Source of the DNA: a phage
Sequence record: NC_107013.1
DNA length: 41,265 bases
Strand: one strand, 5' to 3'
A model generated the notes under the pieces. It made no database searches. It saw only the letters and a list, made by a program, of their open reading frames with translations, and was not told where the DNA came from. Both the position numbers and the translations under genes were made by a program. Below, piece by piece: positions 37,554-39,326 of this stretch (position 1 is its first letter; every line of letters starts with the position of its first letter).

Positions 37554-37766
37554 TTATTTACAACCAGAAAACCACGCGCGCTCGGAATCATAGAAACGGC
37601 ATTTACTTAACACATCTACTGGCATCTTAATAATGCGCGTCGGTTCCGACAAATGGTTAGGCTTACATATTTCTGCATAGAATCCGCTGTCAGTAATTTC
37701 TGACGCAAACTTAAACCAGTATTTAACTTTACCGTTTTCAAAGTAACAACCCATACGCCCAATCAT
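37554..37766 (-). CDS. Hypothetical protein (70 aa)
   Basis: ATGA coupling to the upstream HTH gene. Confidence 0.45.
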   Translation of the reverse strand: MIGRMGCYFENGKVKYWFKFASEITDSGFYAEICKPNHLSEPTRIIKMPVDVLSKCRFYDSERAWFSGCK

Positions 37767-37945
37767 TTCACGTTCTCCTTAATCCACTCTTCAACTTTAT
37801 TACGGTCAAATGTTCCAGGCAAACGGCGGCCCATAACCTTAATACAACAATCCGGGAATTTACCACTGCGCAACCAGTTATTAATTGTCTGACGTGTCAC
37901 CCCGATACGCTCGGCTACTTCATTCTGGGTCATGTAATGTTGCAT
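37763..37945 (-). CDS. Small HTH DNA-binding protein (first gene of the leftward early operon)
   Basis: AGGAGA RBS before ATG 37945; motif EVAERIGVTRQTINNW. Confidence 0.6.
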   Translation of the reverse strand: MQHYMTQNEVAERIGVTRQTINNWLRSGKFPDCCIKVMGRRLPGTFDRNKVEEWIKENVK

Positions 37946-37976
37946 TTTTAAATCTCCTGTTTGTTTGGTGAAGCCA

Positions 37977-38005
37977 AGTATAGGATAGCGGGAATGTAAA
38001 AGCAA
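37977..38005 (-). promoter_or_regulatory. Sigma70-like promoter TTGCTT-N17-TATACT for the leftward early operon
   Basis: Hexamers and 17-bp spacer on the minus strand, divergent from 38053-38081. Confidence 0.45.
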
Positions 38006-38052
38006 CCAAAACACCACACAAAGTTACTAAGATGCAAAAGATGCTACTGGTA

Positions 38053-38197: not shown

Positions 38198-38268
38198 TAA
38201 TTCCCGCCTAAATATCTAAGTTACTGATTTGCCGTGGGTTATATCCGCAAGCTCACTCACTCACTCTT

Positions 38269-38302
38269 GGTGCCTTCGGCACCACGTTCGTTTCGTTTCG
38301 CT
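38269..38302 (+). terminator. Intrinsic terminator downstream of element copy 2
   Basis: GGTGCC-TTCG-GGCACC tetraloop hairpin then T-rich tract. Confidence 0.45.
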
Positions 38303-38379: not shown

Positions 38380-38413
38380 TCACTTATCGAAACGAGACAG
38401 AGGAGTGAGGGTT

Positions 38414-38602
38414 ATGTTTAAGAATGGTCAGTTGGTTAAAGCTGTAAATAGCTATTATTGTGTTGTTGAAAGAGAGTCTGTCGTTTTTCTCGGAACTTAT
38501 AGGGTGCGTTTTCTCGGGAAAAGATTAGGCGCGGTAGATTGGTTCCGTGAAGACGAGCTAACACTCATCGGCAACAATTTTAAATTCAAAGGGGCGAAGT
38601 GA
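38414..38602 (+). CDS. Hypothetical protein (62 aa)
   Basis: GAGG RBS before ATG 38414. Confidence 0.5.
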   Translation: MFKNGQLVKAVNSYYCVVERESVVFLGTYRVRFLGKRLGAVDWFREDELTLIGNNFKFKGAK

Positions 38603-38802
38603 TGGAAGAATTATTTGAAGAACTGAAACATCATGATTTCGAGGAAATATATTTCGTAGCTGAACGCTACGAGGTGCATTTATCGGACGGGATTACAATT
38701 ATTACGATGGATAGCCAGCAAATGCTAAATAGCTTACAGGCAATCAAAACGGCATCGAATCGTGATGCTTGTGCCGACGACTCTGAGGGAGGTTGCCGTT
38801 AA
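38602..38802 (+). CDS. Hypothetical acidic protein (66 aa)
   Basis: TGATG coupling; AAGGGG RBS. Confidence 0.45.
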   Translation: MEELFEELKHHDFEEIYFVAERYEVHLSDGITIITMDSQQMLNSLQAIKTASNRDACADDSEGGCR

Positions 38803-38981
38803 TGCGAATCCGTATAACTGACCGCAGGCTTGTCCGTATAACTGACCGCAGGCTTATAGATTTCGGTATCTCGGTAGGTGATGTTTTTCCGGCGTTCAGC
38901 ATCAACCATTATGGTTTTATGATTGAGTACAAAGGGTCGTTATTGTTCGTGTATCGGGATGAATGTGAGGTTCTGGTATGA
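38802..38981 (+). CDS. Hypothetical protein containing an in-frame 8-aa duplication (RITDRRLV / RITDRRLI)
   Basis: TAATG coupling; ORF spans the 24-bp tandem repeat. Confidence 0.4.
   Translation: MRIRITDRRLVRITDRRLIDFGISVGDVFPAFSINHYGFMIEYKGSLLFVYRDECEVLV
38809..38856 (+). repeat. Tandem direct repeat, 2 x 24 bp (TCCGTATAACTGACCGCAGGCTT[G/A])
   Basis: Two adjacent copies differing at one position. Confidence 0.85.
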
Positions 38982-39133
38982 GAGAAGCATTTGAACGGTG
39001 GGCTGTGGTCGAGGGTCTGCCGGTTAACAAGGGTTCAAAGAAAGAGTACCTGAACGTTAAGACGCGTCTCGCGTGGCGGGCGTGGAAAGCTGGTGTGCAA
39101 TCCTTGATTGAAAGAGGTGTGAGGTATGGGTGA
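38978..39133 (+). CDS. Hypothetical small protein (51 aa)
   Basis: ATG 38978 overlapping the upstream stop. Confidence 0.35.
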   Translation: MREAFERWAVVEGLPVNKGSKKEYLNVKTRLAWRAWKAGVQSLIERGVRYG

Positions 39134-39326
39134 GTGGATTAAGTGTAGTGAGATGCTGCCGGGTAATGGGTATACGGATAAAGAGTTCCTGGTGTATGAA
39201 ACGTTAAATAACGCAGTTCAGCACGATTATTACATAGTTCCTGATGACGGGAGAAAGCCTTTCTGGAATCACTACGATAAGTACGTGACGCACTGGATGC
39301 CGTTACCCGAGCCGCCAGAAGTGTGA
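39126..39326 (+). CDS. DUF551-like phage protein
   Basis: Pattern W-KCSEMLPG...THWMPLPEPP resembles the DUF551 family. Confidence 0.5.
   Translation: MGEWIKCSEMLPGNGYTDKEFLVYETLNNAVQHDYYIVPDDGRKPFWNHYDKYVTHWMPLPEPPEV

Follow-up and report, generated by a model that had tools for sequence, protein, structure and literature searches.

Tandem repeats that lie within coding sequence and vary in copy number (coding VNTRs, or minisatellites) occur in bacterial and phage genes and are used for MLVA typing, with slipped-strand mispairing or unequal recombination as the accepted mechanism. The phage locus described here shares several properties with such repeats: its units are arranged head-to-tail, the unit is a multiple of three bases and the frame is continuous, copy number varies between near-identical genomes, and the copies within a genome are homogeneous. 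It differs from known coding VNTRs in that its arrays are very short (1-3 copies), lie at the extreme 5' end of a 51-aa gene rather than in a gene for a surface or tail-fibre protein, and have no phenotype linked to their copy number. Iterons and tandem operator sites, a second class of described elements, likewise consist of direct repeats, about 24 bp long, in the neighbourhood of genes for replication and regulation; unlike them, this locus does not conserve two or more copies in relatives, has no extra copies and no dyad symmetry, and is constrained at the codon level. Taken together, the locus is very probably an in-frame, copy-number-variable tandem repeat made by slippage, in which extra copies are most likely tolerated and nearly neutral. 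As a short coding VNTR formed by slippage, it is an ordinary kind of feature. Searches of the literature for Kagunavirus tandem repeats, phage VNTR slippage and fTaEco01 returned nothing relevant to the locus.

The window, by which we mean the whole 41,265-nucleotide stretch of phage DNA that was analysed (NC_107013.1), matches Kagunavirus (Guernseyvirinae) phages of E. coli at about 93-97% identity, both across the repeat region and over its full length. K1G, K1H, K1ind2/3, fTaEco01 and P AB-2017 are among the phages matched, none of the records being identical to the window, which comes from a K1G-like siphophage of the genus Kagunavirus. Complete E. coli genomes, and thus any prophages in them, contained no match to the window, and Rfam and tRNA scans of the window gave no matches. 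The features of the locus are collected in Table 1. The repeat-bearing gene belongs to a rightward operon of very small overlapping ORFs that diverges from helix-turn-helix and helicase-primase genes, and its relatives occupy the same position in the early-right operons of other Kagunaviruses. It begins with an ATG at 38802 and ends with a TGA at 38979-38981. The ORF list gives a longer, TTG-started version (38793..38981), but the ATG is the likely start because a Shine-Dalgarno-like GAGGGAGG precedes it, the upstream stop codon overlaps it and relatives are annotated at the same start. The TAATG overlap with the upstream ORF suggests that translation of the two genes is coupled.

Table 1. Features of the repeat locus, in coordinates of the window
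Feature	Coordinates	Strand	Evidence and remarks
Upstream small ORF, 67 aa; stop codon TAA overlapping the start of the repeat gene (TAATG)	38599-38802	+	Sequence; ORF list
Shine-Dalgarno-like GAGGGAGG, 9 nt before the ATG	38785-38792	+	Sequence; kept where relatives have the same upstream gene
Small early gene, 59 aa plus stop, MRIRITDRRLVRITDRRLIDFGISVGDVFPAFSINHYGFMIEYKGSLLFVYRDECEVLV	38802-38981	+	ORF list; phrog_30395 match; AlphaFold2 model; pN/pS; CDS annotation in relatives
Repeat copy 1, TCCGTATAACTGACCGCAGGCTTG	38809-38832	+	23-nt core TCCGTATAACTGACCGCAGGCTT plus junction base G; sequence, Tandem Repeats Finder (TRF), motif and repeat searches
Junction base G (Ile to Val), marker of the G lineage of arrays	38832	+	Comparison with relatives
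Repeat copy 2, TCCGTATAACTGACCGCAGGCTTA	38833-38856	+	Identical 23-nt core plus base A; sequence, TRF, motif and repeat searches
Downstream small ORF, 51 aa, phrog_15836; start codon ATG overlapping the TGA stop of the repeat gene (ATGA)	38978-39133	+	Sequence; ORF list; PHROG

Several further observations were made in the vicinity. Homologues of the phrog_15836 protein carry PF26207 (Phage_phiTE_015) in precomputed hits, and a DUF551 protein is encoded farther downstream, at 39126-39326 (Pfam E 6e-12). A terminator-like hairpin, TGGTGCCTTCGGCACCA, with a T-rich tail lies at 38268-38284, within the untranslated leader that separates the first small rightward ORF from the divergent helix-turn-helix gene. 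The segment 38760-38821 comprises approximately the last 40 nt of the upstream ORF, the ribosome-binding site and approximately the first 20 nt of the repeat gene (ATGAGAATTCGTATAACTGA, MRIRIT); in many Kagunaviruses it is conserved at 88-93% identity, although the protein sequence encoded by the rest of the gene is only about 45% identical. This segment looks like a conserved junction for allele exchange, that is, a mosaic boundary, and the repeat unit starts inside it. Upstream genes also differ among relatives (1358-1781 in G AB-2017, L007, and 1262-1740 in fEg-Eco19, L008, versus 38405-38802 in the window), small ORFs having been swapped upstream of the repeat gene with the break exactly at its start codon. 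Such swapping is typical phage mosaicism in an early operon.

A first-pass annotation of the window had reported a tandem duplication inside this small ORF, with one substitution separating the copies and an in-frame addition of eight residues to a 59-aa protein. The duplication is real: direct reading of the sequence gives two head-to-tail, in-frame copies of TCCGTATAACTGACCGCAGGCTT(G/A) at 38809-38856, and Tandem Repeats Finder agrees (period 24, 2.0 copies, 100% matches, score 94). No other tandem repeat of the 41-kb window comes near it, all of them scoring 45 or less, and a second repeat search recovered the same 24-nt pair. The copies are 47/48 identical, with a perfect 23-nt core and a single variable junction base. 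From position 38802 the gene reads ATG CGA, then two units of ATC/GTC-CGT-ATA-ACT-GAC-CGC-AGG-CTT (I/V-R-I-T-D-R-R-L), then ATA GAT. In codon register, the first unit, which begins with ATC, spans 38808-38831 and encodes IRITDRRL, and the second, which begins with GTC, spans 38832-38855 and encodes VRITDRRL.

Copy number was compared across isolates, as the first-pass annotation had proposed, using the gene from 14 GenBank phages together with contigs, viral or metagenomic, that a search with an 18-mer of the unit had retrieved; the remaining metagenomic matches to the 18-mer lay in unrelated contexts and were set aside as chance. Related phages and contigs carry one, two or three copies, and the 23-nt core is identical in every copy. 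Most relatives are single-copy: LF7074P1, NTEC3, phiEc3, G AB-2017, fEg-Eco19 and ten metagenomic or viral contigs have one unit, ending in A. Two copies with junction bases G,A were found in the window, fTaEco01, K1ind2, K1ind3, Esher4 and five contigs, and two copies with A,A in fKuEco01, fTaEco03 and L032. Three copies are present in K1G and K1H (A,A,A) and in UTI-CM001 (G,G,A). The position equivalent to 38832 is A in fKuEco01, fTaEco03, L032, K1G and K1H. More distant Kagunaviruses retain the gene at the same position in a version only about 45% identical, with unrelated sequence where the motif would lie.

A wider census was taken by exact-sequence look-up in a collection of 15 billion proteins, in which contigs, not independent samples, were counted. 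On the haplotype of the window, two-copy forms were found on 219 contigs, 126 with an Ile junction and 93 with a Val junction (the window protein itself), versus 19 contigs with the one-copy form. A three-copy form (Val-Val) was found on 1 contig. Four-copy and mixed-junction forms were absent from this look-up. The other common haplotype (...LAFSSN...) has mostly one-copy forms (119 plus 62 contigs), and the two-copy array is present there also (P0204). The two-copy excess on the window haplotype (219 versus 19) could reflect selection for two copies rather than neutrality, or simply the sampling of a successful lineage.

These comparisons bear on how old the duplication is. In contig L058 both flanks (200 nt before and 330 nt after the array) are 100% identical to those of the window but enclose a single copy, and the multi-copy phages are nearly identical across the 330 nt after the array. 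The sequencing run SRR22027981 has one copy between identical flanks. The proposal that the repeat is a recent slippage product, or one that varies in copy number, is therefore borne out by relatives that differ in copies, by the identical cores and by the single copy within identical flanks; the opposite of an old, fixed pair, with two copies in every relative and many silent differences, was observed. The comparative data speak decisively against an old internal protein repeat or an assembly artefact. The bare presence of two copies, and nothing more, would fit either, whereas the variation among relatives and the lack of silent differences between copies argue against them. The same arrays also turn up in isolates obtained by different laboratories, in different years and with different sequencing methods, as well as in metagenomes that were assembled independently, and the 48-72 nt array is shorter than a normal sequencing read.

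The pattern of substitutions separates change within genomes from change between lineages. When lineages are compared, the single unit varies at two synonymous sites, gene positions 9 and 12, giving the variants TCCGT, TCCGA and TTCGA, while the core never varies inside one genome; copies within a genome are thus more alike than orthologous units of different lineages. Among alleles of the gene pN/pS is 0.19, so that the gene is under purifying selection, and the constraint acts on the protein, because orthologous single units differ at synonymous sites only. This ratio, and the retention of the gene at the same position in distant Kagunaviruses, mark it as genuine. For copy number, a flank-based UPGMA tree interleaves one-, two- and three-copy loci in its leaf order. 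Because this tree does not group loci by state, and because upstream genes differ among relatives, events were counted by parsimony on the array states. The simplest history on this count comprises at least three unit gains (from one copy to two, and from two to three separately on the A background and on the G background) and one A-to-G substitution. Contractions are equally possible, since a G,A array that loses one unit returns to the canonical sequence of the one-copy form. The rest of the 150-nt gene shows about three point changes over the same span, versus at least three copy-number changes, so that the array changes much faster per site than ordinary sequence. In K1H (L003), an in-frame 9-nt tandem duplication (TACGAGCAA x 2.6) was also seen in the upstream gene, at 1467-1489 (about 38735-38750 of the window), where relatives of K1H have one unit fewer; slippage-type indels are therefore not confined to the 24-nt unit.

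The first-pass annotation had also raised the possibility that the repeat acts at the DNA level as a paired binding site. Such a site might consist of origin iterons or of an operator for the nearby helix-turn-helix protein, with the coding effect incidental. Direct repeats of approximately 20-24 bp are typical of iterons, and both the helicase-primase gene (about 1.3 kb away) and the divergent helix-turn-helix gene (0.8 kb away; 37763-38017, minus strand) are near the array. However, a paired site is difficult to reconcile with a motif that is single in most relatives, including the contig with window-identical flanks, and absent from the distant alleles that nevertheless keep the gene. No third copy of the core was found in the window even at up to three mismatches (100 dinucleotide-preserving shuffles gave 0 core matches), no inverted repeat or dyad symmetry was found around the repeat, and a promoter and terminator scan returned nothing at the repeat. 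In addition, units of different lineages differ at synonymous third positions only, and the GC-skew minimum coincides with the divergent-gene switch (about 38.0-38.4 kb), away from the repeat. The proposal of a paired site is not upheld by these results, and we consider a DNA-level role very unlikely.

The position of the array near the start codon raises a further possibility, that copy number tunes translation of the repeat gene, or of the genes downstream, through mRNA structure at the ribosome-binding site. The repeat starts 7 nt after the start codon, and in the minimum-free-energy fold the Shine-Dalgarno region pairs with the first copy. This fold is, however, no stabler than that of shuffled sequence (z-score 0.21), and accessibility of the Shine-Dalgarno sequence and AUG ranged from 0.16 to 0.31 with no consistent trend over one to four copies. 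Moreover, given the TAATG overlap, ribosomes finishing the upstream ORF would open such a structure. Tuning of translation by copy number is accordingly an explanation of very low probability.

At the protein level, the repeat-bearing product was compared with profile and structure databases. It matches phrog_30395 at E 9.7e-39, residues 11-59 aligning with profile positions 3-51. The profile has 51 positions, the length of the one-copy form, and the extra copy falls outside the family model. The protein also matches phrog_10916 at E 1e-5. Members of the family are few and come from phages only: among 1.84 billion representatives, a profile search retrieved 19 proteins at E <=0.001. No Pfam family reaches threshold for the repeat-bearing protein. 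The AlphaFold2 model of the window protein (pLDDT 88; 67 for the first 10 residues) contains a strand at residues 4-13, a helix at 16-21 and then four strands. In the model of a 63-aa relative with a long linker (pLDDT 94), residues 2-5 form a strand, 6-20 a loop and 21-24 a helix, before four further strands. SH3 domains dominate both fold searches and give significant structural matches, the topology is that of a five-stranded barrel, and the protein is predicted to be an SH3-like β-barrel. In a PDB sequence search with the family profile, the conserved FGVSVGDEFEV motif weakly matched the repeated LGVSVGDYVEV of designed double-psi beta-barrels (E 0.03-0.1). These matches, all at E 0.03 or more, were taken to reflect the short GVSVGD motif in common rather than homology; the element resembles a GD-box-like supersecondary element common to small barrels.

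Some GenBank records describe members of this family as 'FeoA family protein', or give an HHpred value of 95.8-95.9 to a FeoA-type structure. The C-terminal SH3-like domain of FeoA/DtxR proteins does resemble the window protein: it too is a small SH3-like barrel, its first strand is followed by a short helix, and it carries a similar L..lG..pG/vGD..v motif. PA4359 and ScaR are among the Foldseek matches. Eukaryotic-type SH3 domains, however, score equally well or better in the fold searches. Membership of FeoA (PF04023) is unsupported: long relatives score 12-13 bits against a Pfam cut-off of 23, the window and one-copy proteins give no Pfam FeoA match, and hhalign against the FeoA profile, a narrow one built from enterobacterial sequences at least 83% identical, gave a probability of 2.8% (E 0.016, 39 columns). 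Nor is the gene associated with feoB or iron-transport genes in the genome; its neighbours are the small ORFs of a phage early operon. What the protein and FeoA may have in common is the SH3-like fold class. Other names in the operon of GenBank relatives are also implausible: the 51-aa homologue is called either 'glycosyl hydrolase' or 'FeoA family protein', the 66-aa DUF551 gene 'valyl-tRNA synthetase' and a 45-aa ORF 'lactocepin', which look like propagated annotation errors.

The repeat maps to the first strand (β1) of the predicted barrel and to the start of the short helix or loop that follows it. No segment of the family varies more in length than the linker between MRIRIT and the L..FG motif, which ranges from about 5 residues to 16 or more. 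Where the 63-aa relatives read MRIRIT-DVDYVLPPGYG-DHSLRHFG..., the one-copy form reads MRIRIT-DRRLIDFG..., without 11-12 residues; these would fall directly after the first strand, exactly at the point where the repeat is inserted. It is conceivable that the expansion, by 8 or 16 residues, restores lost loop length or otherwise tunes how the early protein binds a host or defence target, with two copies favoured. The long form is modelled with a 15-residue loop at this segment, in the position of the SH3 RT loop, and the predominance of two-copy over one-copy forms on the window haplotype is in line with such tuning and would, if tuning occurs, be explained by it. However, the model of the window protein rebuilds no loop but draws both copies as one continuous strand, the distal copy with lower confidence. 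One-copy forms are, in addition, the majority on the other haplotype, three-copy forms are rare, and the contig counts are non-independent samples. We regard adaptive tuning of length as improbable. A more elaborate version, in which an ancestral RT-loop-like deletion was followed by selection of a device that samples lengths in 8-residue slippage units and so adjusts the interaction with a host or defence target, is a shade more doubtful again. The simplest reading of the models is that the extra copy would be a tolerated N-terminal extension of a complete domain, its predicted placement resting on a model that is less confident exactly there.

We therefore return to the short, slippage-made coding VNTR with nearly neutral extra copies. 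Slippage is inferred from the pattern: the unit keeps the frame, its copy number is polymorphic, its copies are identical, and the junction base travels along with it. Arrays could also be carried from one background to another when phages recombine. A single unit has AT on both sides (A-TCC...CTT-A-T), and the first duplication may have arisen by replication slippage or illegitimate recombination at this 2-nt microhomology. Once two 24-nt copies were present, slipped-strand mispairing or unequal recombination would repeatedly add or remove whole units. The junction change from A to G (Ile to Val) probably arose in a two-copy array and was then copied upon growth to three, as in the G,G,A array of UTI-CM001. 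Because the period is a multiple of three, such changes would preserve the reading frame and translational coupling to the downstream genes. Each unit adds IRITDRRL or VRITDRRL after residue 2, and in the predicted structure the barrel-adjacent copy would supply the native strand and helix while the others form an N-terminal extension. Since the position of insertion is the most length-variable part of the family, it is most likely that expansions are tolerated, are nearly neutral and do not act as a switch.

The finding corrects the misleading names 'FeoA family protein' and 'glycosyl hydrolase' for what is a phage-only protein with a predicted SH3-like fold. Near-identical K1-type Kagunavirus isolates can also be told apart cleanly at this locus, by the length of the protein (51, 59 or 67 aa) and by the A or G at the junction. 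Several such isolates are under study for therapy, and the marker could be used to track lineages or drift of stocks. Its practical value is modest, and would be greater only if copy number changes the activity of the protein. For the biology of these phages, natural isolates show at this locus the rate at which units are gained and lost in a phage coding repeat, relative to point substitution.
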